The notes under the pieces were generated by a model. That model was not told the DNA's origin. It searched no databases and saw only the letters and a list, made by a program, of their open reading frames with translations. This document shows positions 655 through 52,888 of a stretch of 64,000 nt of DNA, one piece after another (position 1 is the first letter of the stretch; each line of letters opens with the position of its first letter). Made by a program: the position numbers and the translations under genes. Where the stretch lies: NCBI RefSeq assembly GCF_058153355.1, contig NZ_CM177019.1. One strand, written 5' to 3'.

Positions 655-1554
655 CTAAACAGCACCTTTATACTTCAGCCTATCTATAAATAATGAGAAT
701 GCCGAGCCAGCATGTCGACGGTGTGGATAGTACAGGTGATAACCGGGTAAATCTGGTGTGAATTTATCCAAAACACGTATCAGTTTTTTTTCTTTAATAG
801 CCCGCTCAACCTGATCATAAGGTAGATACGCCAATCCATGCCCATCAATTGCAGCATCAATGATCAGGTCTATCGTATTCAGTAAAAGCTGACCTTCCAT
901 GCGAACACGAACTTCACGTCCACCGCGTATTAATCTCCAGCGATTTGCTGTACCCGATGTGGGAAGATACAAATTAATTGCCTGATGATCTATTAATTGT
1001 GACACTGACGTTGGAGCACTTCGACGAGAAAAATAATCCGGTGAGCCAACAATAGCCATTGGTATATCTGGCCCGATTCGAATGGCGATCATATCTTTAT
1101 CCATCTCCCCACCCAGACGGACGCCTGCATCAAAACGTTCAGAAACGACATCGGTCAAACCATAATCAATGGTAAGCTGGATATCAATTTCAGGATGCGA
1201 TTTCAGGAATGTGCGCATAGCTGGTAACAATATCGTTTTTGCTGCATGTTCTACAGTAGTAATACGTATTGTCCCGGATGGGCGGTTCTGCAGATCGCTC
1301 AGGGATGTCAGGGCAGAATCTATGTCATGCAACATAGGGCCAAGAACAGACAAAAGATGCTCGCCCGCTTCAGTGGGTACAACGCTGCGCGTGGTTCGCG
1401 TCAGAAGCCGCAATCCCAATCGTTCTTCTATACGGCGCACTATCTGGCTTAAAGCTGACTGCGCCATGCTCAGGCGGGCTGCTGCGCGAGTGAAGCTACG
1501 CTCCTCTGCAACGACGACAAACGCCATCAGATCAGCGATTTCTTCACGCTTCAT
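655..1554 (-). CDS. ycjZ: LysR-family transcriptional regulator
   Basis: 299-aa ORF with N-terminal winged-HTH (MKREEIADLMAFVVVAEERSFTRAAARLSMAQSALSQ) and LysR substrate-binding-type C-terminus; divergent from the hydrolase genes as in E. coli ycjZ/ycjY. Confidence 0.9.
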   Translation of the reverse strand: MKREEIADLMAFVVVAEERSFTRAAARLSMAQSALSQIVRRIEERLGLRLLTRTTRSVVPTEAGEHLLSVLGPMLHDIDSALTSLSDLQNRPSGTIRITTVEHAAKTILLPAMRTFLKSHPEIDIQLTIDYGLTDVVSERFDAGVRLGGEMDKDMIAIRIGPDIPMAIVGSPDYFSRRSAPTSVSQLIDHQAINLYLPTSGTANRWRLIRGGREVRVRMEGQLLLNTIDLIIDAAIDGHGLAYLPYDQVERAIKEKKLIRVLDKFTPDLPGYHLYYPHRRHAGSAFSLFIDRLKYKGAV

Positions 1555-1679
1555 TCAGTATCTCCATACAATCTATTAATCATTTAAATGATAGGTCTAA
1601 TCATAATTTAGGGTCTAATCAACTTAATGATCAATATCTATAGTGATATCACCAACCGTCAAAACGAACCGACAACTCC

Positions 1680-2612
1680 ATGAGGAACGGAATGATGAAT
1701 AATAAAGTCAGCTTCACTAACAGCAATAATCCAACCATCTCTTTGTCTGCAGTGATCTATTTCCCTCCAAAATTTGATGAAACCCGTCAGTATCCGGCAA
1801 TTGTGGTATCTCACCCAGGTGGGGGCGTTAAAGAGCAAACGGCCGGAACCTATGCCGAAAAACTGGCGGAAAAGGGATTTGTCACTATTGCTTATGACGC
1901 ATCTTATCAAGGTGAAAGCGGCGGCGAGCCGCGTCAGTTAGAAAACCCATACATTCGTACTGAAGACGTCAGTGCCGTGATTGATTACCTGACAACGCTT
2001 TCTTATGTCGACAATACCCGAATTGGTGCGATGGGAATTTGTGCCGGTGCAGGATATACAGCCAATGCTGCAATTCAGGATCGCCGCATCAAGGCCATCG
2101 CTACCGTTAGTGCGGTCAATATTGGTTCGATGTTCCGTAATGGTTGGGAAAACAATGTGAAATCTATTGATGCCCTACCATACGTTGACGCGGGTTCAAA
2201 CGCCCGAACCAGCGATATTAGCAGCGGAGAATACGCCACTATGCCACTGGCACCAATGAAGGAGTCCGATGCGCCGAACGAAGAACTGCGTCAGGCCTGG
2301 GAGTATTACCACACCCCTCGCGCGCAGTATCCAACAGCACCGGGTTACGCTACTTTGCGCAGCCTTAACCAGATTATTACCTATGATGCTTACCATATGG
2401 CGGAAGTGTACCTGACTCAGCCGATACAGATTGTGGCGGGCAGCCAGGCAGGGAGCAAATGGATGAGTGACGACCTGTACGATCGAGCATCAAGCCAGGA
2501 TAAACGCTATCACATTGTTGAAGGCGCAAACCATATGGATCTTTATGACGGCAAAGTCTATGTGGCTGAATCAATTTCAGTATTAGCTCCGTTCTTTGAG
2601 GAAACTCTGTAA
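1680..2612 (+). CDS. Alpha/beta-hydrolase (dienelactone-hydrolase-like), ycjY-family, copy 1
   Basis: 310-aa ORF; paralogous to the next gene (shared FPPKFDE..QYPAI..AYDAS.QGESGGEPR..RIGxxGxCxGxGY blocks). True start may be one of the ATGs at 1692-1697 (AGGAA upstream). Stop TAA overlaps the next ATG (taATG at 2610-2614). Confidence 0.8.
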   Translation: MRNGMMNNKVSFTNSNNPTISLSAVIYFPPKFDETRQYPAIVVSHPGGGVKEQTAGTYAEKLAEKGFVTIAYDASYQGESGGEPRQLENPYIRTEDVSAVIDYLTTLSYVDNTRIGAMGICAGAGYTANAAIQDRRIKAIATVSAVNIGSMFRNGWENNVKSIDALPYVDAGSNARTSDISSGEYATMPLAPMKESDAPNEELRQAWEYYHTPRAQYPTAPGYATLRSLNQIITYDAYHMAEVYLTQPIQIVAGSQAGSKWMSDDLYDRASSQDKRYHIVEGANHMDLYDGKVYVAESISVLAPFFEETL

Positions 2613-3551
2613 TGAAACATATTCAAATCCGTAATAGTGATATGGCCTGGCATATTGCTGCCAATATTCAGTTTCCACCAAATTTTGATGAGTCAAAACA
2701 GTATCCGGCGATTATCAGCGTCCATCCTTTTGGCAGTTGTAAGGAGCAGACGTCTGGCAATATCTATGGCAAGGCATTGGCTGAAAAAGGCTATGTCGTT
2801 CTCGCTTATGACGCCAGTTTCCAGGGAGAATCTGGTGGGGAGCCTCGTTGGATAGAAGATCCGACACAGCGCGTAGAGGATATTAGCCGTGTTATCGATT
2901 ATGCAGTAACTCTGCCATATGTTGATGCTGAACGCATTGGCGTGCTGGGTGTGTGTGTGGGGGGGGGGGGGTGGCTATGCCATTAATGCCGCGCTGACAG
3001 AAAAACGAATTAAAGCTGTAGTGAGTATTACGGGTGTTAATATCGGGCGTCTTTTTCGGGAAGGTTTCAGCAATTACGATCCGATTGGCGCATTGAATGC
3101 AATGGCGTCGCAACGAACCAAAGAGGCTCGTGGTGGAGAATTACAGATCAACGAATTACTTCCCGCCAGCCTGGATGCAGCAAAAGCCCATGGACTGACC
3201 GAACGCGATGTTTATGAAGCAACTGACTACTATAAAACACCACGCGGGCAACAACCGGGAGGTGCGACAAAAATGTTGTTCTCACATGCACAGAAAACGC
3301 TGGCCTGGGATGCCTTCGCATTTACTGAAGTGTTACTGACTCAGCCGGTGATGGTAGTAGTTGGTGAAAAAGTCGGTGCCTTCGGTGCTTATCGTGATGG
3401 ACTGGAAGTCTATGGCCGGGCGATGGTTTCGCAGGATCGTCAGTTAGTTTCGTTACCCGATTTCTCACATTATGAACTGTATGACAAACCGGAAGCAGTT
3501 CAGGAGGCGCTGGAAAAAGTTATTCCTTTTTTCAACACCCATCTGGGATAA
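2612..3551 (+). pseudogene. Alpha/beta-hydrolase, ycjY-family, copy 2, interrupted by a +1 frameshift in a 13-G homopolymer (2959-2971)
   Basis: ORF track splits it into 2612..2986 (ends ...GVCVGGGGWLCH*) and 2919..3551 (reads ...WVCVWGGGGGYAINAAL...). Removing one G gives a continuous ~312-aa frame, GVCVGGGGGYAINAALTEKRIK, collinear with copy 1. Confidence 0.75.
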
Positions 3552-3556
3552 GTTTC

Positions 3557-4207
3557 ATGAGAAATATTATGAAAAAAGTACTCATTCTTGGTGCTGGCGG
3601 TCAGATAGCCCGCCATGTGATTAATCAACTGGCAGATAAACAAACCATTAAACAAACTTTATTTGCTCGTCAGCCAGCAAAAATACACAAACCCTATCCA
3701 ACTAATAGCCAGATTATTATGGGGGATGTACTGAATCATGCAGCACTGAAGCAGGCCATGCAGGGACAGGATATTGTGTATGCCAACCTTACGGGGGAAG
3801 ATTTAGATATTCAGGCAAATTCAGTGATCGCTGCGATGAAAGCCTGTGATGTTAAACGTCTGATCTTTGTTCTTTCCCTCGGCATTTATGATGAAGTTCC
3901 AGGAAAATTTGGCGAATGGAATAATGCAGTTATTGGTGAGCCCCTAAAACCATTCCGCAGGGCTGCGGATGCAATTGAGGCTTCTGGACTGGAATATACA
4001 ATTCTTCGCCCTGCCTGGCTGACTGATGAAGATATTATTGATTATGAGCTTACCTCACGCAATGAACCATTCAAAGGTACGATCGTATCACGTAAGAGTG
4101 TCGCAGCATTAATCACAGATATCATCGATAAACCTGAGAAACACATTGGTGAGAATATAGGCATCAATCAACCCGGGACTGATGGTGATAAGCCCTTCTT
4201 CATGTAA
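3557..4207 (+). CDS. NAD(P)-binding Rossmann-fold protein (NmrA/SDR-like); probably the intact form of the locus annotated ymjC in K-12
   Basis: 216-aa ORF with N-terminal KKVLILGAGGQIARHV glycine-rich dinucleotide-binding motif; position between ycjY and mpaA. Confidence 0.7.
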   Translation: MRNIMKKVLILGAGGQIARHVINQLADKQTIKQTLFARQPAKIHKPYPTNSQIIMGDVLNHAALKQAMQGQDIVYANLTGEDLDIQANSVIAAMKACDVKRLIFVLSLGIYDEVPGKFGEWNNAVIGEPLKPFRRAADAIEASGLEYTILRPAWLTDEDIIDYELTSRNEPFKGTIVSRKSVAALITDIIDKPEKHIGENIGINQPGTDGDKPFFM

Positions 4208-4225
4208 ATCAATTATATAGCTACC

Positions 4226-4257
4226 ATCGTACTGTACTATGTGCAGTACGATTTATT
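4226..4257 (+). terminator. Hairpin (atcgtactg / cagtacgat) followed by ttatt
   Basis: 9-bp inverted repeat with 9-nt loop starting 19 bp after the stop at 4207, followed by a T-rich run. Confidence 0.55.
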
Positions 4258-4371
4258 AAACTTATTAAGGTGAACTGATCAATCAGATGCGATTAACATG
4301 TGTAGAACCAGTAAGAATAAAATACGCCATGTATATAACATTACGACAATTCTAATATCTGCACATCAATG

Positions 4372-4408
4372 AAAATACAAACAACTTCCGGCAAAAAAGT
4401 GATACAAG
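4372..4408. repeat. Copy B of the imperfect ~35-bp direct repeat, upstream of mpaA
   Basis: See 376-410. Confidence 0.6.
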
Positions 4409-4497
4409 ATCGATAACATAGCGTTGAAGAAAAGGATTTGATAATCCGCAAAATTTGCACAACACTGCCTGTAATACTTCCTGAACCAGAGACGATT

Positions 4498-5226
4498 ATG
4501 ACCGTAACCCGCCCACGCGCCGAACGCGGCGCATTTCCGCCCGGAACAGAACATTACGGACGTTCATTATTGGGCGCGCCGTTAATCTGGTTTCCGGCCC
4601 CTGCAGCCAGTCGCGAAAGTGGTTTGATTCTGGCTGGCACTCACGGTGATGAAAACTCTTCGGTCGTCACGCTCTCCTGTGCTCTGCGGACTTTGACACC
4701 GTCTTTGCGCCGCCATCATGTAGTGCTGTGTGTGAATCCTGACGGCTGCCAGTTAGGGTTACGGGCCAATGCTAATGGTGTGGATTTAAACAGAAACTTT
4801 CCGGCGGCGAACTGGAAGGAGGGTGAAACGGTTTATCGCTGGAACAGCGCGGCTGAAGAACGTGATGTCGTATTACTGACAGGTGACAAACCTGGCTCCG
4901 AACCTGAAACCCAGGCGCTGTGCCAGCTTATACACCGCATTCAACCTGCCTGGGTGGTCTCATTCCACGATCCACTGGCCTGTATTGAAGATCCCAGACA
5001 CAGCGAATTAGGCGAATGGCTGGCCCAGGCGTTTGGATTGCCTCTGGTAACCAGCGTCGGTTATGAAACTCCTGGCTCTTTCGGCAGTTGGTGTGCGGAT
5101 CTCAACCTGCATTGCATCACCGCAGAGTTTCCACCTATCTCCTCCGACGAAGCCAGCGAAAAATACCTCTTTGCGATGGCTAACTTGCTGCGCTGGCATC
5201 CTAAAGATGCAATGCGCCCGTCGTGA
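4498..5226 (+). CDS. mpaA: Murein peptide amidase A (gamma-D-Glu-Dap amidase, zinc carboxypeptidase family)
   Basis: ORF 4438..5226; internal start MTVTRPRAERGAFPPGTEHYGRS... gives 242 aa matching E. coli MpaA; HGDE zinc-binding motif present. Confidence 0.9.
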   Translation: MTVTRPRAERGAFPPGTEHYGRSLLGAPLIWFPAPAASRESGLILAGTHGDENSSVVTLSCALRTLTPSLRRHHVVLCVNPDGCQLGLRANANGVDLNRNFPAANWKEGETVYRWNSAAEERDVVLLTGDKPGSEPETQALCQLIHRIQPAWVVSFHDPLACIEDPRHSELGEWLAQAFGLPLVTSVGYETPGSFGSWCADLNLHCITAEFPPISSDEASEKYLFAMANLLRWHPKDAMRPS

Positions 5227-6166
5227 ATTGAAGCGCTGGTTCCACATCTACCGCCAGCCAGGTCGGTCCGTCAAGATCAGCAAAACTGACCTGCGGCACC
5301 AGCGGTAAAGCGGCGCTAATGGCACGAGAGGTACACAACATGCAGCCCAGCATCAGACTGAAACCTTGTGCACGCGCTTCGGTCGCCAGCGCCAGCGCTT
5401 CCGTCAGGCCACCCGTTTTATCGAGCTTAATGTTAACCATCTCATAGCGCCCTTTCAGCGCCTTCAGATTGCTACGAGTATGACAACTTTCATCTGCACA
5501 AATCGGTAACGGATGAATAAAATTCTCCAGTGCCGCATCGTCCTGCGCAGGAAGCGGTTGTTCAAGCATCGCAACGCCTAAATCCGCCAATAGCTGGCAA
5601 CGCGCCGCCAACCCTTCTGCACGCCAGGATTCATTTGCATCAACGATTAGCGTCGCATCGGGTACAGCCGTGCGAATTGCTACCATCCGCTCACTGATAA
5701 GATGGTTATCCAGCTTCACTTTCAGTAATTTCGCGCCTGCCTGCCAGAGTGTTGATGCACTATTGGCCATCTGATCAGGCGTACCGATGACTACCGTCTG
5801 GGCAGTGGTGACTGTCTCGGGAAGCGTTATGCCGATCAAATCAGCCAGCGATTGCTGCTGTTTTCGCGCCGCCAGATCCCACAATGCACAATCCAGCGCA
5901 TTACGTGCTGCGCCGGCAGGGAGAATTTTTTGCAACTCCTCCCGTGTCAGCCCTTTCTCTAATTGCGGCACGACGCTCATAATTTGCGCCATTACCGAGG
6001 CATCACTTTCTCCATAACGCGGATACGGCGTGCATTCACCGGTGCCTTTAATACCTTCTTCTTCCAGTTCAACCACCACCACGCGCGCTTCACTACGACT
6101 TCCCCGAGCAATCACAAACGGGGTATGTAAGGGCCAGGCTTCCTCAAATACCTTAACGATTCTCAT
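5201..6166 (-). CDS. ycjG: L-Ala-D/L-Glu epimerase (enolase superfamily)
   Basis: ORF 5201..6208; start at MRIVKVFEEAWPLHTPFVIARGSR gives 321 aa; convergent with mpaA and overlapping its 3' end by 26 bp. Confidence 0.9.
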   Translation of the reverse strand: MRIVKVFEEAWPLHTPFVIARGSRSEARVVVVELEEEGIKGTGECTPYPRYGESDASVMAQIMSVVPQLEKGLTREELQKILPAGAARNALDCALWDLAARKQQQSLADLIGITLPETVTTAQTVVIGTPDQMANSASTLWQAGAKLLKVKLDNHLISERMVAIRTAVPDATLIVDANESWRAEGLAARCQLLADLGVAMLEQPLPAQDDAALENFIHPLPICADESCHTRSNLKALKGRYEMVNIKLDKTGGLTEALALATEARAQGFSLMLGCMLCTSRAISAALPLVPQVSFADLDGPTWLAVDVEPALQFTTGALHL

Positions 6167-6284
6167 CTTTACTCCTTGTTGTCGCGGTGGTCTGCGGATT
6201 AAGCGCAAATAGCGTTTGCTGTGTTATTGACAGTTAGCATAAACTAGGTGTGACGTTAACTATATGTAAACAGGAAAGATAATC

Positions 6285-6788
6285 ATGTCACAAACCGTTC
6301 ATTTCCAGGGCAACCCGGTTACAGTAGCCAATTCCATCCCGCTGGCGGGTAGCAAAGCGCAGACTTTTACTCTCGTGGCAAAAGATCTGTCTGACGTCAC
6401 CCTCGGTCAGTTTGCGGGTAAACGCAAAGTGCTGAACATTTTCCCGAGTATTGATACCGGTGTTTGCGCCGCATCAGTACGTAAGTTTAACCAACTGGCA
6501 ACTGAGATCGACAACACCGTTGTGCTGTGTATCTCTGCCGATCTGCCGTTCGCCCAGTCTCGTTTCTGCGGCGCAGAAGGTCTGAACAACGTTATCACCC
6601 TCTCCACTTTCCGTAACGCTGAATTCCTGCAAGCCTACGGTGTGGCAATTGCTGATGGCCCACTGAAAGGTCTGGCAGCGCGTGCCGTTGTGGTTATCGA
6701 TGAAAATGACAATGTGATTTTCAGCCAGCTGGTTGATGAAATCACCACCGAGCCGGATTACGAAGCAGCTCTTGCTGTACTGCGCTAA
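6285..6788 (+). CDS. tpx: Thiol peroxidase (atypical 2-Cys peroxiredoxin)
   Basis: 167-aa [38 protein letters not shown]...; recognised as E. coli Tpx. Confidence 0.95.
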
Positions 6789-6796
6789 ACAACTGT

Positions 6797-6835
6797 GCCG
6801 TTCACTGAATCACCACCGGTGAACGGCAGTTTTTG
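6797..6835 (+). terminator. Rho-independent terminator of tpx
   Basis: gccgttcac - 12-nt loop - gtgaacggc followed by agtttttga, 9 bp after the tpx stop. Confidence 0.75.
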
Positions 6836-6929
6836 ATCTACCAATCCCACTATTTTCCAGAGTTCCTGCCACTATTCCCCCTAACCGTTGTGCATTAAGA
6901 TTGTTCTTTGCCATTATTAGCCCAGCGGA

Positions 6930-8984
6930 GTGATGACTATTATGGATGATAAACAAATTACGGTCTGGCTTAAACACAATTGCTGTTCAACGGACATTCC
7001 TGCCATTGCCGAGGCACTAACGAACCATGCAGAATGGCTTTTAGAGCTAGCGCCAGATCCTATTGAACAAGGTAGTTCATGTTTACCGCCGACAGCTGCA
7101 GCCGGTATTTTTCTTGGCGCAGCGGCGATGGTTCACTGCGGCGAGGCTAGTGGTGCAGAAACCTGGCTCGAAGCAGCCATTACTGATTACCATTTCTTTA
7201 ATCCAAATGGATATAGTTCATGGAGAGGCAGTACGCCTGTTTTTACAGCATTATCGCGTTACCCGGCATTAAGAATGGTGTTATTTAACGCCGCTTGCGC
7301 AATGGAAGACTGGAATAAAGCATCCGCTGTTCTTGAATCGCTTTTCCATGCCGGCGATGTCCCGGAAGATAACCCTGTCGCCCCAAATTTTACCCCTTAT
7401 GCGCTGAAAGCGTTTATCGCGGATTACCACCCGTTAGGGCCTGCTTATTATGATGAAACCTGGTTGCTGGCAAAACAAGCGTGGTTAATTAATGCGGGCG
7501 TTCTGGATGAGCGAACCTGTAATACCTGGAAGCAATATACCCGCCACTTGCGCCATTTGATCCACAATACACAGTTTGCCGATGCGCTCTCTTTTGTACG
7601 CAGTAAAAAAGAACCGTTAAATCATATCCATACCTACTCAGACTTTTATCTGTATGCGATTGGTTTATTTTCTTATACTAGTCAGCTAAATGAAGCGCTG
7701 ACCTGGATAAAACAGTTAATCCACAACAATGATGGTCATTTCTGTGATCTTTTCGTTTCAACTGGCAAAGAGCGCCGAATAAAGCCTGAACTTAGTACCT
7801 TGCTGAATAATCTCTTGCACAGCGCAGAGTTTCAGGCGTTGCAGGATAAATATCTCACCGTCGGACATGATGTTGTGTATTCTGGTCCCTTCATGTCACT
7901 TTATGAAAAGGTTCTTGGCGGTAAGTCCCGAAAGCGCTGCGCGATTAGTCGAAAATTAATCTCGCCCGGCGAAGCGGTTTATGAATATCGTCAGCTGGAT
8001 AGTGTGGAATATATTGCAGCAAAAGCGGCCTTTCAGACATCTGAGCTAAATAATATCGCCCACCGGCATCATAATGATAGTTATCAGTGGCATGAATTTG
8101 CTGCCCAATGGCCTCGTCGGGGTTCACTTTCTCACCCAGATATTGCCCGTTATTTGTTTGAGCGCCAGGAAGGAAAATGCTTTGATGCCGCAGAGTTTAT
8201 ACAACTGATTGCGGAACCGTTTGTCTTTCCGATGCGTTTCATATGGGTTGCCGGGTTGTCCTTTGAATTACATCAGTATCCGGATGCCTATTTCGTAAAT
8301 GACAATATGGCGGGTGAATTTGTTAATCTCTGCTGGATGGCTATGAAATGCGGACATGCTGGAGACATTTTCAAACAACTGGCCCACGAGCCGCATGACG
8401 TTGCTGACCCTATTTACGCCATGCTCGCCACGTTTGACCGCGCTGATTGCCGTAGCGCCGCCGCCGCGCACTTTGGACAACCGGAACTACCGGAAATAAT
8501 GGCACTGGCTTTCAGTTCGAGGTTATCGCTGGACAGCGTCCTTACCATCGCTGAGTTTGGTAAAAATCAGCCGCGATTTTCACATGCGCTAGCAACGGCC
8601 CTCCTGCGTTACAACCTGCACATCTACTCAAACTATATGCCGCAGGTTAACTGGTTCCTTCAGGGGCTGGAACACTATGCTTTGGCAAAAGGCGGTCAAC
8701 TTTTAAATTTCTTTGTGCATATTCCAGAACAAATTCCCGTTCTGGCGACCATGCTGGAACATGGCGTATTAGTGCGTGGGATCGGTGAAGGTGCCTACGA
8801 TGGTTATGATAATTCAGCAAATTCATTTCATCATGCCGCCGTGATGCACTGCCTCACGCACGCGCCGGAAAAAGTCCGCTACTGGATGGAAACACCCTGG
8901 ATTCAGAACTATTTAGTGAATGCGCCGCTGCGTCAAACGGCGCGCCATGTGGAAGCCTGGCATAAAAAGTTTGGCATCAAATGA
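6930..8984 (+). CDS. Orphan 684-aa ORF of unknown function; predicted cytoplasmic, aromatic- and His-rich, no motif I can assign
   Basis: Uninterrupted 2055-nt ORF; GGAG at 6922-6925 just upstream of ATGs at 6930/6933/6942; no signal peptide or TM segment evident; no canonical Walker A (only a near-miss LGGKSRK); sits between tpx and tyrR where K-12 has only a short spacer. Confidence 0.75.
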   Translation: MMTIMDDKQITVWLKHNCCSTDIPAIAEALTNHAEWLLELAPDPIEQGSSCLPPTAAAGIFLGAAAMVHCGEASGAETWLEAAITDYHFFNPNGYSSWRGSTPVFTALSRYPALRMVLFNAACAMEDWNKASAVLESLFHAGDVPEDNPVAPNFTPYALKAFIADYHPLGPAYYDETWLLAKQAWLINAGVLDERTCNTWKQYTRHLRHLIHNTQFADALSFVRSKKEPLNHIHTYSDFYLYAIGLFSYTSQLNEALTWIKQLIHNNDGHFCDLFVSTGKERRIKPELSTLLNNLLHSAEFQALQDKYLTVGHDVVYSGPFMSLYEKVLGGKSRKRCAISRKLISPGEAVYEYRQLDSVEYIAAKAAFQTSELNNIAHRHHNDSYQWHEFAAQWPRRGSLSHPDIARYLFERQEGKCFDAAEFIQLIAEPFVFPMRFIWVAGLSFELHQYPDAYFVNDNMAGEFVNLCWMAMKCGHAGDIFKQLAHEPHDVADPIYAMLATFDRADCRSAAAAHFGQPELPEIMALAFSSRLSLDSVLTIAEFGKNQPRFSHALATALLRYNLHIYSNYMPQVNWFLQGLEHYALAKGGQLLNFFVHIPEQIPVLATMLEHGVLVRGIGEGAYDGYDNSANSFHHAAVMHCLTHAPEKVRYWMETPWIQNYLVNAPLRQTARHVEAWHKKFGIK

Positions 8985-8992
8985 ACGTTGCC

Positions 8993-9013
8993 GCTGCGCC
9001 TGAACGGCGCAGC
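8993..9013. terminator. Short GC hairpin (gctgcgcc-tgaac-ggcgcagc) between the convergent orphan ORF and tyrR
   Basis: 8-bp stem, 5-nt loop; no U-run on either strand, so at best a weak or bidirectional pause/terminator. Confidence 0.4.
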
Positions 9014-9021
9014 CAGCACAA

Positions 9022-10563
9022 TCACTCTTCGCTTTTCTTCTGGTTTAAGCCATATTCCCGCAACTTATTGGCAATCGCGGTATGCGAAACGCCGAGACGT
9101 TTTGCCAGTTTGCGCGTGCTGGGATAATTGCGATAAAGCTGAGTTAATACCGAGCGTTCAAAACGGCTGGTAATTTCGTCCAGCGAACCTTCCATCGCAT
9201 CTTCGCCCACGGCTACCGTTGCGGCGTCATAATCCGGCAACAAAATATCCTGAGGACGCAGCTCATAGCCGTCCAGTTGTGTCAGTGCGCGATAGATAGC
9301 GTTCTTTAACTGCCGCACATTTCCCGGCCACGCATAACGCGTAAGTACAGTATTCAGGTCAGCGGCCAGTTTCGGACGCGGCACGCCCTGCTCGTCGGCA
9401 AAGCGAGCGACGAACAGTTCAGTTAACGGCATGATGTCCTGCGGACAGTCACGTAACGGCGGCAGATTGAGCGTCAACACGTTCAGACGATAATAGAGAT
9501 CTTCACGGAACACGCCTTTTTGCACCAGTTCGACCAAATTCTTCTGCGTAGCGCAAATAACCCTTACATCGACATGCACTTCATGATCTTCACCAACTCG
9601 ACGGAAAGTACCATCATTAAGGAAACGCAGTAATTTCGCCTGCATCCTTGGCGACATCTCGCCTATCTCATCTAACAGCACCGAACCACCGTTCGCCTGC
9701 TCAAAGAACCCTTTTTTACCTTCCGGAGCATGACCAAACAGTTCACTCTCGACCGCATCTTCCGGTATAGACGCGCAGTTCAGCGCCAGGTAAGGTTTGC
9801 CCGCTCGTGGGCTTGCCTGATGGCAGGCGTAGGCAAAGAGATCTTTACCTGTACCGGTGTCACCCGTAATCAGCAACGGCGCGCTTAGCATCGCCAGTTT
9901 CTGCGCCTGTTCGACAACATGCTTCATTTTCGGGCTGACGGCGACAATTTGACTGAAGGCACTGACGTCCTGTGCAGCGACATTCTGCAACTGACGGCCC
10001 ATACGAATCGTCGAGCGCAACATCACCACCGCACCGGTCAGAACGTGTTGATCATTTTCATCCTGAAGATAAACAGGCGTAATCTCCATCAGGAAATTCT
10101 GCCCATTAATAACGACATGCTCGTTATGCGAGTCTTGCGGTTCGCTTTCCAGCCAGCGTAAAAAATTAAAGCCGTTAATTAATTGCGCGGCGGTATGGTT
10201 GCGCAGGCGATCCAATTTTTGCCCAAAAAGCTGACAGCTCGCCGGGTTCGCCATATCCACTTTGCTTTTCATATCAACAGAAAGCACAGGTTCAGGCAAC
10301 GCCTCCAGTAACGCGCTCAACGCCAGATGCTCACGTTCGGAAGGCATCCACGGGACAGTACGCACATCGGTAACACCTGCAATACGGCGTATTTCGGCCA
10401 TCAGACTGCTGAAGCTCTCAAACTCCAGTTCAGCAAAATTGAGGTAGATTCGCCCAATGGGGTCAATCTCAATACCGCGTAAATCAATGCCTCTCAGCAC
10501 CAGTAAATCGAGTAATTCGCGGGTCAGACCAAGTCGGTCTTCACAAAAGACTTCCAGACGCAT
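9022..10563 (-). CDS. tyrR: Transcriptional regulator TyrR (sigma-54-interaction-type AAA+ domain, C-terminal HTH)
   Basis: ORF 9022..10590; start at MRLEVFCEDRLGLTRELLDLL gives 513 aa; GDTGTGKD Walker A and C-terminal HTH present; recognised as E. coli TyrR. Confidence 0.95.
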   Translation of the reverse strand: MRLEVFCEDRLGLTRELLDLLVLRGIDLRGIEIDPIGRIYLNFAELEFESFSSLMAEIRRIAGVTDVRTVPWMPSEREHLALSALLEALPEPVLSVDMKSKVDMANPASCQLFGQKLDRLRNHTAAQLINGFNFLRWLESEPQDSHNEHVVINGQNFLMEITPVYLQDENDQHVLTGAVVMLRSTIRMGRQLQNVAAQDVSAFSQIVAVSPKMKHVVEQAQKLAMLSAPLLITGDTGTGKDLFAYACHQASPRAGKPYLALNCASIPEDAVESELFGHAPEGKKGFFEQANGGSVLLDEIGEMSPRMQAKLLRFLNDGTFRRVGEDHEVHVDVRVICATQKNLVELVQKGVFREDLYYRLNVLTLNLPPLRDCPQDIMPLTELFVARFADEQGVPRPKLAADLNTVLTRYAWPGNVRQLKNAIYRALTQLDGYELRPQDILLPDYDAATVAVGEDAMEGSLDEITSRFERSVLTQLYRNYPSTRKLAKRLGVSHTAIANKLREYGLNQKKSEE

Positions 10564-10633
10564 GGGAACCTTCACCTGAAAAAAGAACAATTAATATGAT
10601 GATATGACACTATTTGGATAGCAGGAAGGTTTC

Positions 10634-10651
10634 TGTCAACAATCATTGACA
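10634..10651. promoter_or_regulatory. Candidate TyrR box (TGTCAA-N6-TTGACA) in the tyrR promoter region
   Basis: Palindrome tgtcaacaatcattgaca about 70 bp upstream of the tyrR start; resembles the TyrR-box consensus TGTAAA-N6-TTTACA (tyrR is autoregulated). Confidence 0.5.
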
Positions 10652-10710
10652 CAAAGACGGAAAAACGGGCACTTCGGCGTAAAGATATCCGGTCAGCACC
10701 CGATATTGCA

Positions 10711-11772
10711 TTATTTTTCGCTGGGCGTTTTGCCTTTTTGCAGCGTCTCTTTCACCTGACCGATAAGCTGACGACGGAAATCCCCGAGGCGAGGTTTGTC
10801 ATCGTCAATCCACGGCAGCGGGCGGCAAAGCTCCATAGCTTTAATCCCCAGTCGCGCCGTCAGAAGTCCAGCACCAATCCCCTGAGCTGCGCGGGTAGAC
10901 AAACGCGCAGCGAGATCTTGCGACATCCAGTCCATCCCCACTTCGCGCACCAGTTCGCTGGCTCCGGCGAAAGCGATATTCAGCAATACCAGCTTAAACA
11001 GGCGCAAACGGCTGTAATATCCCAGTTCAATGCCATACAGCGTGGCGATGCGATTGATCAAACGCAGATTGCGCCAGGCGATAAATGCCATATCCACCAG
11101 CGCCAGCGGGCTAACGGCGATCATTAACGTTGATTCCGCCGCTGAGCGACTGATTTCGCGCCGCGCCTGAGCATCTAAAACCGGCTGGACCAGATGAGCA
11201 TACAGGCTGACCACTTCACGATCGTTCTGCGTTTCATGGATTGACGCATACCAGCGTTGCAGCGCCGGATGGGACTGATCAATACCCGCCTGCTGCGCCA
11301 GTTTTTCACAAAATGCGCGGCCTTTGCCCGTGCCGTGGCTGTGCAATAAATCACGCGCTTCGTCGCGTTCATGGGCGCGCTGTCGCAAGCGCCATAAGCG
11401 CCGCCACTCTGTTACCACAGAACCTACGCCAGCGCCGATAATCAATGCCCCAGCGGCACATCCACCCAGCGCTACCCAATCCTGAGTTTGCCAGGCATTC
11501 ATCGTCCACTGCACGCCCTGTCCGACAACGCTTGCACCAAACAGAGCCAACCCGCCCATCACCATTTTGCGCCACAGGCTGCGTTTCGGACGTAACGCCG
11601 CGTCCATCACCGCTTCAACTTGCCCCTCTTCTTCCTGCGCTTCGTCGAGCGTGGCCGGGGCAAAATTTTGCGCCTGATTTTCGTCAAAGGTCTGCTGCGC
11701 CCTGAATTTTGGATTCTGATCGACCTCCAGTGGACCGTCGAAATCAATACGTGGTTTTAACGGTTCGGTCAT
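10711..11772 (-). CDS. ycjF: Inner-membrane protein YcjF (UPF0283 family)
   Basis: 353-aa [26 protein letters not shown]...; hydrophobic segments; overlaps ycjX stop (operon ycjXF). Confidence 0.9.
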
Positions 11773-13166
11773 CGCAATTTATCTCCTATTAAAAATTCCA
11801 GCGCAGCATCAAGGCGAATATGCGGCAACGGTTTGTCGACATCCATCACCTGCGGGCGAAACGCCTCAAACTGGAAGCCTTGCTTATCCCAGAACGCCTG
11901 GCCAGGCAAACGTGCGGGAACTTCGCCAGGATACACAGTGAGCGGTGCGCCATCGCTGAGTCGATTACCGCGCAGCGCCGGGATTTTCTCACCGTTAACA
12001 TCAATAATGCCGCTGGTGGTCGCCTGAACTGACGCCAGCCCCAGGCAGTCCATGCTGATCCCTTCGAACGCCGCATTTTGCCAGGCATCCTGAATCAGTT
12101 GTTGCAGTAATGAAACCATATTGGCGTGCTGATCGATGGTCACATGATCCGCTTTAGTGGCAGCAAACAATAGCTTATCGATAACCGGCGAAAACAAGCG
12201 CCGGAACAAGGTACGCTGCCCGTAGTGGAAGCTTTGCATCAGCTGCGTCAGCGCCAGACGCATATCATTGAATGCTTGTGGTCCACTGTTGAGAGGTTGC
12301 AGGCAATCCACCAGCACAATCTGCCGATCAAAGCGCAGAAAATGATTTTTATAGAACCCCTTCACCACTTTCTCGCAGTAATAATTAAACCGTTCGCGCA
12401 GCATTCCGGCATTGGTGTGCTTGTCGGCCTGTGCAAGTTTTGATTCGCCCCAGGCATCGACATCTGGCCACGGGAAGAATTGCAGCGCGGGCGCACCTGC
12501 CATATCGCCCGGCAAGACAAAACGCCCAGGCTGAATAAAGTGCAGCCCCTGCTGTTTGCAGTGGTGGAGATAATCGGTCCATGCGGCAGCAATGTCTGCA
12601 AGACGGTTTTCGTCGGCAGGTGCTAGTGGGTCCAGCCCTTCGCACATCATTCGCCATTTTGCCGACCATTCGCCGCGCTGACCATTGAGTAAGCCTGTCA
12701 TCTGGCGCGACCAGCTTAAATAGTCCTGCGCCAACATCGGCAAGTCGAGTAACCATTCGCCAGGATAATCCACTATCTCCAGATACAACGTGGAAGTGTC
12801 TTTGAAGTGACGCAACAGCGAATCGTTCGATTTATAGCGTAGCGCCAGGCGAATCTCACTGACGCCGCGTGTTGGGGTCGGCCAGGCGGGAGGATCGCCA
12901 TATAACTGCGCCAGCCCTTCATCGTAGGTGAAGCGCGGAATGCCAAAGTCACGCTGGGGAATGCGTTTTACGCCCAGCAGGCGCTCTTCACGCACCGCAC
13001 TTAATAGCGGCAAGCGTGCTCCGGCATGAATATTGAGCAACTGATTGACCATCGCAGTGATAAACGCGGTTTTGCCGCTGCGGCTAAGTCCGGTTACAGC
13101 GAGGCGCAGATGTCTGTCGACACCCCGATTCACCAGCGCATTAAGTTCATTTTTAAGTCGCTTCAT
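11769..13166 (-). CDS. ycjX: Conserved P-loop NTPase YcjX
   Basis: ORF 11769..13253; start at [35 protein letters not shown] gives 465 aa with Walker A GLSRSGKT. Confidence 0.9.
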
Positions 13167-13310
13167 TGCTGTCCTGTGGACCAGAAAAAAATCATTCGTA
13201 AGGATATGAATGTGGGGGCCATGCCCTTGATTATCAACTGCCCGTGTTGTCATCTTGAGGCGAACTCCATAAGATGTGCAGCATTCACGTTCGGACGGAG
13301 TTCCTGACCT

Positions 13311-14309
13311 ATGTCCCCTACTATTTATGATATTGCCAGGGTTGCCGGCGTATCAAAATCCACCGTATCACGCGTGCTGAATAAGCAAACCAATATCTCC
13401 CCGGAAGCGCGCGAAAAAGTGTTACGGGCCATTGAAGAATTACAGTATCAGCCAAATAAACTGGCCCGCGCGCTGACCTCTTCGGGCTTTGATGCCATTA
13501 TGGTGATTTCTACCCGCTCGACCAAAACTACGGCGGGTAACCCGTTTTTCTCCGAAGTTTTGCATGCCATTACCGCCAAAGCGGAAGATGAGGGTTTCGA
13601 CGTGATATTGCAGACGTCGCACAACCCAGCTGAAGACTTACAAAAATGTGAAAGCAAAATTAAGCAGAAAATGATTAAAGGCATTATTATGCTAAGTTCG
13701 CCAGCAGATGAGTCTTTTTTCGCCCAACTCGATAAATACGATATTCCGGTGGTAGTAATTGGCAAAGTTGAAGGTGAATATGCCCATGTTTATTCTGTCG
13801 ATACCGATAATTTTGGCGACAGTATTGCGCTGACCGATGCGCTAATTGAAAGTGGACATAAAAATATTGCCTGCCTACATGCTCCGCTTGATGTCCATGT
13901 TTCGGTTGACCGCGTTAATGGTTATAAGCAAAGTCTGGAAGATCATAATATTGCAGTGCGCAATGAGTGGATCGTTGACGGTGGTTATACCCATGAGACA
14001 GCACTACAAGCCGCGCGGGAATTATTAAGCCAGTCACCGTTGCCTGAGGCAGTGTTTGCTACTGACAGCCTGAAATTAATGAGCATTTATCGTGCGGCGG
14101 CAGAGAAAAACATTGCTATTCCGCAGCAGTTAGCGGTGGTGGGTTATAGTAATGAAACGCTGTCGTTTATATTAACGCCTGCACCGGGCGGCATCGATGT
14201 TCCGACGCAGGAGTTAGGTCAACAAAGCTGCGAGTTATTATTCCGCTTAATTGCCGGAAAACCGTCACCACAAAATATTACCGTTGCCACGCATATGTCG
14301 TTGAAATAA
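13311..14309 (+). CDS. ycjW: LacI-family transcriptional repressor YcjW
   Basis: 332-aa ORF with N-terminal HTH ([22 protein letters not shown]) and periplasmic-binding-protein-like effector domain. Confidence 0.9.
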
Positions 14310-14323
14310 ATGCCAGCTACGTT

Positions 14324-14407
14324 GCCTGAATGCCGGATGCGATGCTGGCGCATCTTATCCGGCCTACATTTATAAACCGGATAAAGTACTCGCGCCGCAT
14401 CCGGCAA
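14324..14407. repeat. REP/BIME-type extragenic palindromes between ycjW and ompG
   Basis: Two REP-like units (gcctgaatgccggatgcg...cgcatcttatccggcctaca and ccggataaagtactcgcgccgcatccggcaa) in the convergent intergenic space. Confidence 0.65.
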
Positions 14408-14419
14408 TTTAGCACATTA

Positions 14420-15325
14420 TCAGAACGCGTAATTCACACCGACACCTGCATAATGGAATTTATCGCTATCGCCTTCGTCGTGATCCTGCCACTCAAACGC
14501 GTATTCCAGCGAAACGGAAAGACCATTCTGGAAATCATAACCGTAAAACAAACCAAGACGGTTAAAATCATGGCCCTCACGTTCGATATCATCCTGCCAG
14601 TCCCAGTTACTCCAGCGATCCAACCCAATGCGCGTATACGGTGTCACCGAGTGGTTGCCGAGCGTCAGCGGTAAATAGGCGCGAATTTCTTGCGTGGAGA
14701 ATTCACCGTTATTGCGGCTGTCGTCCATATTGAAGCCGCGCTCGAGATAATAGTTCACTCGCAAGGCAACCGTTTCGTTGAAGGTATATTGCAGACCCGT
14801 TTCCGTTTCGACACGGGTATCAGCATAACCGGTTGTATTCAGATCGTTGGCAAATTTATACATCGACAGCCAACCGTTGAAACGTAAATCGTCAGTCAGT
14901 TTCACGTCCCAGTCTGGCGCGATTTTCCAGCGCTGCATATTTGCCGTGTCTTTACCCGGTTCATCAACGTAGTGATAACCATAGTTACGGAAACCACCGG
15001 TCAGGCCGAAACTGAAATCATCGCTTTCGAGAAACTGATAATGCACTTCCAGTTCCGGGCGATCAAACCAGGTTCCACGTTTACCCGCGCTATAATCTAC
15101 TGGCCCTTCCTGATAATAAGCCAGCGATATTCTCCACGGCCCGTTGGCAGCATTAAAATAGACGGAAGGCTCCGCCAGCCCGTCCATATCTTCGCCATAA
15201 CCCTCAACGTTTTCTATTTCGTACATCGCGCCGATATTAAAGTGCCAGTCGTTTTTTTCCTCAGCCTGTGCGCAGGCCATTCCCGCACACATCACCAGTG
15301 CGGTACAGGGTAATAACTTTTTCAT
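14420..15325 (-). CDS. ompG: Outer membrane porin OmpG
   Basis: 301-aa ORF with signal peptide MKKLLPCTALVMCAGMACAQA and beta-barrel-type alternating pattern ending ...GVGVNYAF. Confidence 0.9.
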   Translation of the reverse strand: MKKLLPCTALVMCAGMACAQAEEKNDWHFNIGAMYEIENVEGYGEDMDGLAEPSVYFNAANGPWRISLAYYQEGPVDYSAGKRGTWFDRPELEVHYQFLESDDFSFGLTGGFRNYGYHYVDEPGKDTANMQRWKIAPDWDVKLTDDLRFNGWLSMYKFANDLNTTGYADTRVETETGLQYTFNETVALRVNYYLERGFNMDDSRNNGEFSTQEIRAYLPLTLGNHSVTPYTRIGLDRWSNWDWQDDIEREGHDFNRLGLFYGYDFQNGLSVSLEYAFEWQDHDEGDSDKFHYAGVGVNYAF

Positions 15326-39758: not shown

Positions 39759-39788
39759 CCCGGATAAAGCGTTCACGCCGCATCCGGC
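39759..39788. repeat. REP element downstream of ymjA
   Basis: gcccggataaagcgttcacgccgcatccggc palindromic unit. Confidence 0.55.
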
Positions 39789-40036
39789 TAAAAATGACAC
39801 GCACTGCAGCGTGCTTTAATGGGTTTCTCACGATCGTACCGCTCTGCTCCTCGCTAAGTTGTTCTGTGAGTTATAGTTATAGAGAAATCACGGGTACGAA
39901 TGTTGAACAGATGGCGACGTCACCTGTTCAACGACCAACCACACGGCCCTCATTACGACCCCTGAACACAAACGGTAATGGCAAATGTCATTAAATATTA
40001 GTAAGATAGCCTCTTTACATAAAATCCCTTAATATT

Positions 40037-41680
40037 ATGCGCCAGGTATTATCGTCTCTTTTGGTGATTGCTGGACTTGTGAGTGGTCAGGCAATCGCCG
40101 CGCCTGAATCCCCCCCGCATGCTGATATCCGCGACAGCGGTTTTGTCTATTGCGTCAGCGGGCAAGTCAACACCTTTAACCCATCCAAAGCGAGCAGTGG
40201 GTTAATTGTCGATACCCTTGCCGCCCAGTTTTATGATCGACTCCTGGATGTCGATCCCTATACCTATCGCCTGATGCCGGAACTTGCCGAAAGCTGGGAA
40301 GTGCTCGACAACGGCGCGACCTATCGCTTCCACCTGCGTCGCGATGTTCCGTTTCAAAAAACCGACTGGTTTACTCCCACTCGTAAAATGAATGCCGACG
40401 ATGTGGTGTTTACCTTCCAGCGAATTTTTGACCGTAACAACCCGTGGCATAACGTCAACGGCAGCAACTTTCCCTACTTCGACAGCCTGCAATTTGCCGA
40501 TAACGTGAAAAGCGTCCGCAAACTGGATAATCATACCGTTGAGTTCCGACTCGCCCAGCCAGATGCTTCTTTTTTGTGGCACCTGGCGACCCATTATGCA
40601 TCGGTCATGTCGGCAGAATATGCCCAGAAGTTAGAGAAAGAAGATCGCCAGGAACAACTCGACCGTCAGCCGGTCGGCACTGGACCGTATCAGTTATCGG
40701 AATACCGCGCCGGGCAATTTATTCGCCTACAACGTCATGATGACTTCTGGCGCGGCAAACCGTTAATGCCGCAGGTGGTGGTGGATTTAGGCTCCGGCGG
40801 CACCGGACGTCTTTCGAAACTTCTGACAGGTGAATGCGACGTTCTGGCCTGGCCTGCTGCCAGCCAGCTATCTATTTTGCGTGACGATCCGCGCTTGCGT
40901 TTAACGCTGCGTCCGGGGATGAATGTCGCCTATCTGGCATTTAACACCGCCAAACCGCCGCTTAATAATGCCGCCGTGCGCCATGCGCTGGCTCTGGCGA
41001 TCAATAACCAACGCCTGATGCAATCCATCTATTATGGTACGGCTGAAACGGCGGCCTCTATTTTACCGCGCGCCTCGTGGGCCTATGACAACGAGGCTAA
41101 AATTACTGAATACAATCCGGCGAAATCGCGCGAACAGTTGAAGGCGTTAGGGCTGGAAAACTTAACGCTGAAACTTTGGGTGCCCACACGTTCGCAGGCG
41201 TGGAACCCCAGTCCACTGAAAACCGCCGAACTGATTCAGGCGGATATGGCGCAGGTTGGCGTAAAAGTGGTGATTGTGCCGGTAGAAGGTCGTTTTCAGG
41301 AGGCGCGGTTGATGGATATGAGCCATGATCTGACGTTATCCGGTTGGGCGACAGACAGTAACGATCCGGACAGTTTCTTTCGTCCGCTACTGAGCTGCGC
41401 AGCAATACATTCCCAGACCAACCTCGCCCACTGGTGCGATCCGAAATTCGACAGCGTGTTGCGTAAGGCGCTCTCCTCGCAGCAGCTAGCGGCGCGTATT
41501 GAAGCCTATGACGAAGCGCAAAGTATTCTGGCGCAGGAATTGCCCATTTTGCCGCTGGCGTCGTCATTGCGCTTGCAAGCCTACCGTTACGATATCAAAG
41601 GGCTGGTTCTTAGCCCGTTTGGTAACGCCTCCTTTGCTGGTGTGTATCGCGAGAAACAGGATGAGGTGAAAAAACCATGA
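40037..41680 (+). CDS. sapA: Periplasmic solute-binding protein of the Sap ABC transporter
   Basis: 547-aa ORF with signal peptide [21 protein letters not shown]. Confidence 0.9.
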
Positions 41681-42642
41681 TTATCTTCACCTTACGCCGC
41701 ATTTTGTTATTGATTGTCACCTTGTTCCTGCTGACGTTCGTTGGCTTTAGCTTGAGCTATTTCACCCCACATGCGCCGTTACAAGGCGCTTCACTGTGGA
41801 ATGCCTGGGTGTTCTGGTTTAACGGCCTGATCCATTGGGATTTTGGTGTTTCCAGCATTAACGGTCAGCCGATTGCCGAACAGTTAAAAGAGGTCTTCCC
41901 GGCGACGATGGAACTGTGCATCCTCGCCTTCGGTTTTGCGCTGATTGTTGGCATCCCCGTAGGAATGATTGCCGGGATTACGCGCCATAAGTGGCAGGAT
42001 AACTTGATCAACGCCATCGCCTTACTGGGCTTTTCAATCCCGGTGTTCTGGCTGGCGCTTCTGTTGACGCTGTTTTGTTCACTCACGCTAGGTTGGTTGC
42101 CCGTTTCAGGGCGTTTCGATCTGCTCTACGAAGTGAAACCGATTACCGGTTTTGCGTTGATTGATGCCTGGCTTTCGGACTCACCGTGGCGGGATGAAAT
42201 GATCATTAGCGCAATCCGTCATATGGTATTGCCCGTGATCACCCTGTCGGTTGCGCCAACAACTGAAGTGATCCGACTAATGCGTATCAGCACTATCGAA
42301 GTGTATGACCAGAATTATGTAAAAGCGGCGGCGACCCGCGGTTTGTCACGCTTTACTATTTTGCGTCGCCACGTTCTGCATAACGCGTTACCTCCGGTTA
42401 TTCCTCGCCTGGGCTTACAATTTTCCACCATGCTGACGCTGGCAATGATCACCGAAATGGTCTTTAGCTGGCCGGGTTTAGGGCGCTGGTTAATTAACGC
42501 CATCCGCCAGCAAGATTACGCGGCCATTTCCGCCGGAGTGATGGTGTGTGGCTCACTGGTCATTATTGTTAACGTGATTTCTGATATTTTGGGTGCCATG
42601 GCTAACCCTCTGAAACATAAGGAATGGTATGCCTTACGATAG
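41677..42642 (+). CDS. sapB: Sap ABC transporter permease
   Basis: 321-aa hydrophobic ORF; 4-bp overlap with sapA. Confidence 0.9.
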
Positions 42643-43519
42643 CGTATACAGCGAAAAGCGCCCGCCGGGCACGCTGCGTACCGCCTGGCGCAAATTTTAT
42701 AGTGATGCCTCTGCGATGGTCGGTCTGTACGGCTGCGCGGGACTGGCTGTACTGTGTATTTTTGGCGGCTGGTTTGCGCCTTACGGAATCGATCAGCAAT
42801 TTCTCGGCTATCAATTATTGCCGCCTTCATGGTCACGCTATGGCGAAGTTTCTTTCTTCCTGGGGACTGACGACCTCGGACGCGATGTTTTAAGTCGTTT
42901 ACTGAGTGGAGCTGCACCAACCGTGGGGGGGGCATTTGTGGTGACGCTTGCAGCGACGATCTGTGGCCTGGTACTTGGCACCTTTGCCGGGTCGACGCAC
43001 GGTCTACGCTCAGCGGTGCTTAACCATATTCTGGATACCTTACTGGCGATCCCTTCCCTACTGCTGGCAATTATCGTTGTAGCGTTTGCCGGACCGAGTT
43101 TGTCGCACGCCATGTTTGCCGTCTGGCTGGCGCTGCTGCCTCGTATGGTACGTTCGATTTACAGCATGGTGCATGACGAACTGGAAAAAGAGTACGTTAT
43201 CGCCGCCCGTCTGGATGGCGCATCAACGCTGAATATTCTCTGGTTTGCTGTGATGCCAAACATCACCGCCGGGCTGGTCACCGAGATCACCCGCGCACTG
43301 TCGATGGCAATTCTCGATATCGCCGCGCTGGGCTTTCTCGATCTCGGCGCACAACTCCCCTCGCCTGAATGGGGAGCGATGCTCGGTGATGCGCTGGAAC
43401 TGATTTATGTCGCCCCGTGGACTGTCATGCTGCCAGGTGCGGCAATTATGATTAGCGTGCTGTTGGTTAACCTCCTTGGCGACGGTGTTCGTCGTGCAAT
43501 TATTGCGGGGGAGGAATAA
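42629..43519 (+). CDS. sapC: Sap ABC transporter permease
   Basis: 296-aa hydrophobic ORF. Confidence 0.9.
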
Positions 43520-44511: not shown

Positions 44512-44512
44512 G

Positions 44513-45319: not shown

Positions 45320-45325
45320 TGTTTT

Positions 45326-45368
45326 GCACCTCATCCTGACAGGCCCCCCCCCTCAGGATGAGGTGTTC
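45326..45368. terminator. Bidirectional hairpin between the convergent sapF and MFS genes, with a C10 homopolymer in the loop
   Basis: cacctcatcctga - caggcccccccccc - tcaggatgaggtg; 13-bp perfect stem. Confidence 0.6.
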
Positions 45369-45369
45369 A

Positions 45370-46533: not shown

Positions 46534-46541
46534 ATTATTCC

Positions 46542-47915: not shown

Positions 47916-47918
47916 AAC

Positions 47919-52147: not shown

Positions 52148-52174
52148 TATTTTCTCCAGGGTGAGAAATACCCT

Positions 52175-52275
52175 CCTCATTGAAATTAATGAGGATATGT
52201 CAGGGATATTCAGTTATAACGAACCCGCATCGCGAAATGAATTTCGCAATGAAATAAGGGGGATTAATATCCCCC
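52175..52275. promoter_or_regulatory. Cluster of three inverted repeats between the TetR gene and the MFP gene (candidate operators / pump promoter)
   Basis: tcctcatt-gaaatt-aatgagga (52174-52195), gcgaaat-ga-atttcgc (52232-52247), ggggga-ttaata-tccccc (52258-52275). Confidence 0.5.
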
Positions 52276-52295
52276 GCTATTGGTTAATTCTGTTC

Positions 52296-52862: not shown

Positions 52863-52888
52863 TTCTGTCTCCTGGCCTATCACTTGGT

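Follow-up and report, generated by a model that had tools for sequence, protein, structure and literature searches.

Why does a run of 13 G interrupt the catalytic elbow of a hydrolase gene in Escherichia coli, and is the run a sequencing error, a lesion that killed the gene or a site that changes length by slippage? We examined this question in a 64,000-nucleotide (nt) stretch of contig NZ_CM177019.1 (RefSeq assembly GCF_058153355.1), hereafter the window, where the run splits the second of two adjacent alpha/beta hydrolase genes (hydrolase copy 2; copy 1 is ycjY). Our answer, which we consider probable though by no means secure, is that the tract is a genuine heritable hotspot of slipped-strand mutation in a dispensable, mostly OFF gene, and that its length reflects near-neutral drift or decay rather than a selected switch. 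No homopolymer in the window is longer than G13, the sole run of 13 G there, whereas shuffles that preserve dinucleotides yield on average 0.01 such runs per window; C9 at 45344-45352 is the only other run of G or C that reaches 9 nt. A first-pass annotation of the window had described G13 as splitting the gene into two open reading frames (ORFs), and its positions for the run and for both ORFs hold. The elements concerned are:

2959..2971, + strand: G13 homopolymer, reproduced in Logan contig SRR31441161_231
2950..2972, + strand: compound repeat T(GT)4G13T, between GCTGGG and GGCTAT; 23 nt against a 16-nt base state
2612..2986, + strand: 5' ORF of hydrolase copy 2 (the full-length form of K-12 ymjD); 124 amino acids (aa), ending in ...GVCVGGGGWLCH and a stop past the tract
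2919..3551, + strand: ORF of 210 aa that overlaps 2612..2986 at the G run
2973..3551, + strand: 3' portion of hydrolase copy 2, read in the +1 frame (GYAINAAL...NTHLG, then stop), holding the remaining fold, including the C-terminal SHYELYD segment; aligned to YcjY and PA2218

The compound repeat encodes the nucleophile elbow of the enzyme, G-V-C-(V)-G-G-G-G, and window positions 2941-2980 read cgtgctgggtgtgtgtgtg-G13-tggctatgcc. The frame of the window copy breaks four codons after Cys-Val (GVCVGGGG followed by WLCH and a stop), which gives the 124-aa product; an uninterrupted G-x-C-x-G elbow and the C-terminal half occur together in one polypeptide only in intact alleles. Deleting one G in silico restores a continuous frame of 312 aa that reads GVCVGGGGGYAINAAL, as the first-pass annotation had expected for 12 G, and this protein matches exactly EGO8351531.1 of a sister isolate (sister A, below). 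The T(GT)4G13T of the window is one G above the in-frame T(GT)4G12T of that isolate, and translation therefore stops at codon 125. An enzyme without its C-terminal half would be non-functional, and we expect the 124-aa product to be inactive. Equivalent out-of-frame copies carry the PGAP label "alpha/beta hydrolase, frameshifted", whereas in-frame copies are annotated as intact.

How did such a tract arise? In ancestral-type E. coli alleles, the codons of the elbow are GGA GTG TGT GGG GGT GGT GGC TAT (G-V-C-G-G-G-G-Y), and they contain no long run. The states of the segment compare as follows:

Ancestral segment (AR_452, CX04): A GTGTGT GGGGG T GG T, 16 nt
Citrobacter and Pseudocitrobacter segment: GGC GGC GGT GGC for the same four Gly, 16 nt
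Slippery base state segment: T GTGTGT GGGGGGGG T, that is T(GT)3G8T, 16 nt
Window segment: T(GT)4G13T, 23 nt, +7 and so in the +1 frame

The slippery haplotype differs from the ancestral one by two synonymous changes: GGA>GGT, which lengthens the GT repeat, and GGT>GGG, which fuses G5 and G2 to G8. Hence, two silent mutations made the tract, and the window repeat now stands 7 nt above the 16-nt base state. We looked for intermediates with a single substitution; the class of matches at 96.9% identity that we checked has the ancestral tract, with other single-nucleotide polymorphisms (SNPs) in the flanks. A scan of species-representative genomes with the flanks of the tract found orthologues in Citrobacter and Pseudocitrobacter only. 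The elbow of intact copy 2 (GVCGGGGY) aligns without gaps to those of YcjY (GICAGAGY) and PA2218 (GICGWGGM). This alignment, together with the ancestral alleles that have no long run, rules out 12 G as the wild type. Nor is the 12-G product collinear with copy 1, as had been claimed: relative to the gap-free ancestral GVCGGGGY, it has a two-residue insertion (Val and Gly).

To what extent does the tract vary in length? Among 5,426 complete E. coli genomes, 1,272 carry copy 2. The ancestral type is present in ~890 E. coli genomes; all 34 of the full-length matches that we sampled at 95.8% identity have kept its length. The slippery haplotype is present in ~380 of the 1,272 gene-carrying genomes, ~20% of them in frame and ~80% out of frame. 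Allele-exact queries of 96-98 nt returned 80 (G8), 222 (G9), and 83 (G10) matches in the bands at ≥99% identity, each of which may contain up to 10 partial matches to copies split by an insertion sequence (IS); the corrected counts of exact alleles in complete genomes are ~70, ~212, and ~73, respectively. The length classes of 307, 308, and 309 nt occur in 6, 3, and 1 complete genomes. Written as (GT, G) repeat numbers, the alleles read directly are (3,7), (3,8), (3,9), (3,10), (3,11), (3,12), (4,10), (4,12), (4,13), and (2,15), and two further alleles lack the interrupting T. We also looked up the exact protein of each allele in an index of 15 billion proteins, which gave the following numbers of contigs (clonally confounded):

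(GT)3 series: G6 16, G7 135, G8 937, G9 at least 1000, G10 at least 1000, G11 797, G12 363, G13 74, G14 40, G15 2, G16 1
(GT)4 series: G8 149, G9 3, G10 63, G11 11, G12 2 (O157-type) and 1 (window-type)
(GT)2 series: G12 5, G14 1, G15 2
T-loss forms: 108 and 25

There are at least 20 length alleles at this one site across E. coli (G6-G16, (GT)2-4, and T-loss forms). G8, G11, and (4,12) are annotated as intact proteins of 309-312 aa, whereas G7, G9, G10, G12, and G13 yield "frameshifted" stubs of 122-127 aa. The length polymorphism is not merely platform noise, because EDL933 has G9 in two independent sequencings, namely in Z2444, as first annotated, and in the later re-sequencing, CP008957. 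Strains 113-140, from a single study, are all of 306 nt, one length for the study group. In the T-loss alleles (E105, OkiPb01695), the T before GGC is gone, the run is fused to G9-G10 plus C, and the frame is shifted; here the tract changes by a second route, other than slippage.

Is 13 G the true length in this genome? Sister isolates were found through a rare 680-aa protein encoded nearby (window 6942-8984):

Window clone (Logan contigs of SRR31441161): (GT)4G13; 100% identity over window 942-14984 and 39761-54108 (~28 kb), with C9 reproduced too
Sister A (GCA_015332025.1, Logan SRR8656992): (GT)4G12, in frame, encoding the 312-aa EGO8351531.1; differs by one G, with one SNP over 22 kb
Sister C (GCA_043012465.1, Logan SRR28786219): contigs stop 5-26 nt downstream from the tract; 2 SNPs relative to the window

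If the length had been miscounted, there would be 12 G and an intact, in-frame gene, and the thirteenth G would be a consensus or stutter artefact. We regard this as unlikely, although several observations speak for it. Runs of at least 10 G are error-prone on every platform. Sister A, with identical flanks and 0-1 SNP relative to the window in 13.5-22 kb across assemblies, has exactly 12 G in two assemblies. Both assemblies of sister C break at the tract (window positions 2977 and 2998), a sign that these data sets struggle there; the breaks fit mixed tract lengths or a drop of coverage at poly-G. The NCBI assembly of sister C is also one base off at two intergenic homopolymers, with C8 for the C9 of the window (45344-45352) and A7 for its A8 (57589-57596), which is either more homopolymer variation among the sisters or error in GCA_043012465.1.

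Other evidence argues against a miscount. G13 was recovered in the Logan k-mer assembly of SRR31441161, which has no other difference from the window over ~28 kb in two stretches, and the C9 at 45344 was likewise recovered there. G13 at this site is also found on 74 other contigs. We aligned ~56 kb of the window to the closest complete E. coli genome, that of MB06171 from Galapagos seawater (~91-98% identical, roughly 96% overall), and saw no coding frameshift besides the tract; the other indels are intergenic, compensating, or due to a frameshift in the puuA gene of MB06171 itself. An assembly generically ridden with homopolymer errors is therefore unlikely. The marks of an assembly artefact, a length that is not reproduced and indels scattered over other homopolymers and genes, were both absent, and the long-read homopolymer error that the first-pass annotation had listed as an option is disfavoured by the k-mer assembly and by the intact coding frames elsewhere. 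That annotation had also pointed to other homopolymers as a check on the assembly. Its C10 at 45346-45355 is in fact the C9 at 45344-45352, reproduced by SRR31441161 but read as C8 in GCA_043012465.1; its G8 at 42926-42933 is indeed a run of eight G, located at 42925-42932.

The series of events behind the hotspot begins with GGA>GGT and GGT>GGG, which created T(GT)3G8T in copy 2. Above this G8 threshold, we suggest, the run would gain or lose G and, less often, a GT unit or the T that interrupts it, producing a ladder of alleles in which every third length is in frame. The allele series itself is directly observed, and replication slippage (slipped-strand mispairing) is its probable cause. 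On this account, the tract is an ordinary slippage hotspot, though unusually long for E. coli. We read the polymorphism as near-neutral drift or decay because copy 2 appears dispensable and, in genomes with the slippery allele, is mostly OFF. Two signs of dispensability are the ~3,000 E. coli genomes, most of the other matching genomes, in which copy 2 is reduced to a 5' stub of its initial ~46-58 nt, and the gene split by ISEc20 in strains of O145 and O55:H7. The decay of this accessory gene would be reversible in principle. Of the options raised at first pass, a slippage-prone tract is strongly supported, by the 20 or more length alleles and by sister isolates one G apart; orthologues counted as that annotation had proposed run from G6 to G16 among E. 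coli strains. A pseudogenising mutation describes the effect on this copy correctly, and yet a single slip would turn the copy into an in-frame allele, and the lesion is not fixed.

Several points weigh against this reading. First, the in-frame lengths are not rare, with 937 contigs for G8, 797 for G11, and 40 for G14, and the drop from G13 to G14 is shallower than the neighbouring drops, which could hint at selection for ON states. Second, the contig counts, being clonally confounded and in two cases given as at least 1000, do not amount to a rigorous test of neutrality. Third, the (GT)4 forms could have arisen by slippage of +GT or by substitution of T for the second G in a longer run; (3,12) and (4,10) are equal in total length. 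Fourth, the choice between 13 and 12 G rests on assemblies, and the window and the Logan contig may come from the same library, with stutter of the polymerase chain reaction at G13. Lastly, the 124-aa product of the window has no exact match in the index of 15 billion proteins.

Could the tract instead be an adaptive contingency locus? It would then switch a PgrR-controlled hydrolase of a peptidoglycan-peptide salvage cluster stochastically ON and OFF, as bet-hedging of the kind found in Neisseria, Haemophilus, and Campylobacter. Copy 2 is part of the PgrR regulon ycjY-ymjDC-mpaA, its frame differs between sister isolates, and the in-frame alleles G8, G11, G14, (4,9), and (4,12) all occur and carry annotations of an intact protein. 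The slippery haplotype, tract aside, also differs by only 1-3 SNPs in 940 nt between backgrounds whose flanking genes are 2-8% apart, and a haplotype so nearly invariant in divergent backgrounds suggests recent horizontal spread. Nevertheless, we find an adaptive switch distinctly improbable. Among complete genomes, the slippery allele is OFF in ~80% of cases, and most other matching genomes have been left with the stub. Irreversible lesions pile up at the site (the ISEc20 insertion and the T-loss alleles), and in-frame expansions place extra Gly or Val residues in the catalytic elbow. The product, an enzyme of cytoplasmic type, is neither a surface determinant nor part of restriction-modification, and the switch would be one without a known phenotype.

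Within window positions 2633-3733 (1.1 kb), there are zero SNPs relative to MB06171 apart from the indel at the tract, and the hydrolase gene at 2612-3551 has only 3 SNPs relative to O55:H7 CB9615, while the flanking genes are 2-8% different; the slippery haplotype thus looks like a recently exchanged recombination block. When 25 kb of the window was compared with the 5,426 complete E. coli genomes, none matched at ≥99% over the full length, and the best reached 94.9%. These alignments place the window in a divergent lineage outside that set, on the margin of E. coli. The sister assemblies GCA_015332025.1 and GCA_043012465.1 are labelled E. coli.

In O145 RM8995-C1 and O55:H7 DEC5E, six G of the tract precede a copy of ISEc20 (IS110 family, 1,449 bp), and 3 and 6 G, respectively, follow it. 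The element also sits in a G run at an intergenic site of Nissle 1917, R7, and REF2, and in the G run of an rtcB-family gene in RM9872-C1; both of these non-hydrolase sites read ...GGGGGG-IS-GGGG(G)... The three unrelated sites always have exactly six G before the element and 3-6 G after it, and the window contains no copy of ISEc20. It appears that ISEc20 seeks poly-G and that the expanded tract would serve as a landing pad; the six left-hand G are part of either the target or the element. A more elaborate proposal takes the tract for a repeat-driven contingency locus, in a species whose switches are thought to work by inversion and methylation, whose near-identical 1-kb haplotype spread horizontally to O157:H7/O55:H7, O145, and the divergent lineage, and which doubles as a landing site of ISEc20. 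We give this combination little credence.

Recoding rescue, in which RNA polymerase or the ribosome slips on the G run and restores the frame in some products while tract length is free to drift, is scarcely credible: the allele-frequency ladder does have little 3-nt periodicity, and a run that exceeds the RNA:DNA hybrid in length would stay fully complementary after a slip, but homopolymer insertions across the E. coli transcriptome were all in A/T runs and G/C runs were concluded not to be prone to slippage (PMC5574713), which led us to set transcriptional slippage aside; the frameshift, moreover, is not conserved, orthologues being in frame or variable, and no stimulatory element was seen, although no search for one was made.

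The genes around copy 2 are in the order pgrR (-), ycjY, hydrolase copy 2, SDR-like gene, mpaA, ycjG (-), as in annotated E. coli genomes:

655..1554, - strand: pgrR (ycjZ), LysR-type regulator, a 299-aa ORF that aligns to the annotated pgrR of CB9615 and MB06171; divergent from the hydrolase operon
1692..2612, + strand: ycjY, alpha/beta hydrolase copy 1, intact; Pfam Peptidase_S15/DLH/Hydrolase_4; structure PDB 5XB6
3569..4207, + strand: NAD(P)-binding SDR-like oxidoreductase (the full-length form of K-12 ymjC), next gene of the operon; Pfam NAD_binding_10, E 3.7e-54; relatives annotated "SDR family oxidoreductase"
4498..5226, + strand: mpaA, murein tripeptide amidase, last gene of the cluster; annotated in CB9615 and MB06171; Peptidase_M14

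The stop codon of ycjY overlaps the start codon of copy 2 (TAATG). K-12 ymjD and ymjC are presumably remnants of copy 2 and of the SDR-like gene, consistent with the 46-58-nt stubs. The cluster ycjY-ym(j)DC-mpaA has been reported to be under PgrR control (PMC5934670). Intact copy 2 matches the Pfam families Peptidase_S15, DLH, Hydrolase_4, Abhydrolase_1, and PETase, all above their cut-offs. It aligns to the structure of E. coli YcjY (5XB6) with E 1e-68 over residues 12-307 and to that of Pseudomonas aeruginosa PA2218 (2HDW) with E 5e-41. Copy 2 has the G-x-C-x-G elbow in common with YcjY, and its gene adjoins that of YcjY in the operon. It is, however, a paralogue of YcjY, at 42% identity to the YcjY of the window, and not YcjY itself, and the window copy is truncated past the elbow.

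Other loci of the window gave further observations. Positions 45310-53216 (~7.9 kb), absent from MB06171, stand in place of ycjD between sapF and fabI and encode a TetR-family regulator, an MFS transporter, and a tripartite RND efflux set (a membrane-fusion protein, a 1,035-aa pump, and an outer-membrane factor); only 3 contigs had an exact match to the pump. The 680-aa ORF at 6942-8984, between tpx and tyrR, has no Pfam match on record. The exact protein is present in the sister isolates; MB06171 has a hypothetical ORF of 680 aa in the corresponding place, and O55:H7 CB9615 lacks the ORF. The puuA gene of MB06171 has a 4-nt TTAC duplication and is annotated as frameshifted, whereas puuA of the window (36728) is intact.

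The locus amounts to a natural experiment on the length threshold of homopolymers in a mismatch-repair-proficient enterobacterium: G5-T-GG is stable in ~890 genomes, and the G8 version has given rise to at least 20 length alleles, with a broken gene in ~80% of its carriers. The tract also explains the two-ORF split in O157:H7 reference annotations, in which the 5' ORF is Z2444 of EDL933. Calls of presence, absence, or pseudogene status at this locus, for example in genome-wide association studies or machine learning on O157, would partly track a fast-mutating tract and the limits of sequencing. If the switch were adaptive after all, the gene would be among the very few repeat-driven phase-variable genes of E. 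coli.

How does the tract compare with known systems? Genes with programmed frameshifting or slippage (dnaX, prfB, the transposases of the IS3 family, and Shigella mxiE) likewise have a homopolymeric or slippery stretch where overlapping frames join. Here, in contrast, the frameshift is not conserved, tract length is variable, the run is of G rather than A/T, and the ancestral copy 2 needs no frameshift. The hallmark of a recoding site, a conserved frameshift at an A/T-rich slippery run or heptamer, was therefore not found.

A second comparison is with a survey of Escherichia homopolymers (Ishiya and Nakashima 2022, PMC8928963), the main text of which describes runs inside conserved genes as mostly 6 nt and at most 8, and longer tracts as going with pseudogenes and with the O157/O55 lineages. 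The carriers found here agree with that description, since they are mostly O157:H7 or O55:H7 and their copies are mostly annotated "frameshifted". The main text of the survey does not name the locus of copy 2; what we resolve beyond that text are the two-substitution origin, the allele ladder, and the contrast with a stable ancestral allele. In the literature on ycjY/ymjD/ymjC/Z2444 and on poly-G phase variation in E. coli, we found no description of the tract.

The closest parallel is with the contingency loci of Neisseria, Haemophilus, Campylobacter, Helicobacter, and Bordetella that vary through simple sequence repeats. Their kind of phase variation is recognised by length polymorphism among close genomes, as in the G12 and G13 sisters, and by lengths that toggle between a full-length and a truncated product, as is the case here. 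It is by such sequence-level criteria, and these only, that the tract would be assigned to the class. Unlike those loci, copy 2 encodes a metabolic alpha/beta hydrolase, resides in E. coli, and is mostly OFF. Like them, it has an intragenic G run of 8-16 nt in which single-unit changes toggle the frame, many alleles coexist within one species, and sister isolates stand one unit apart.

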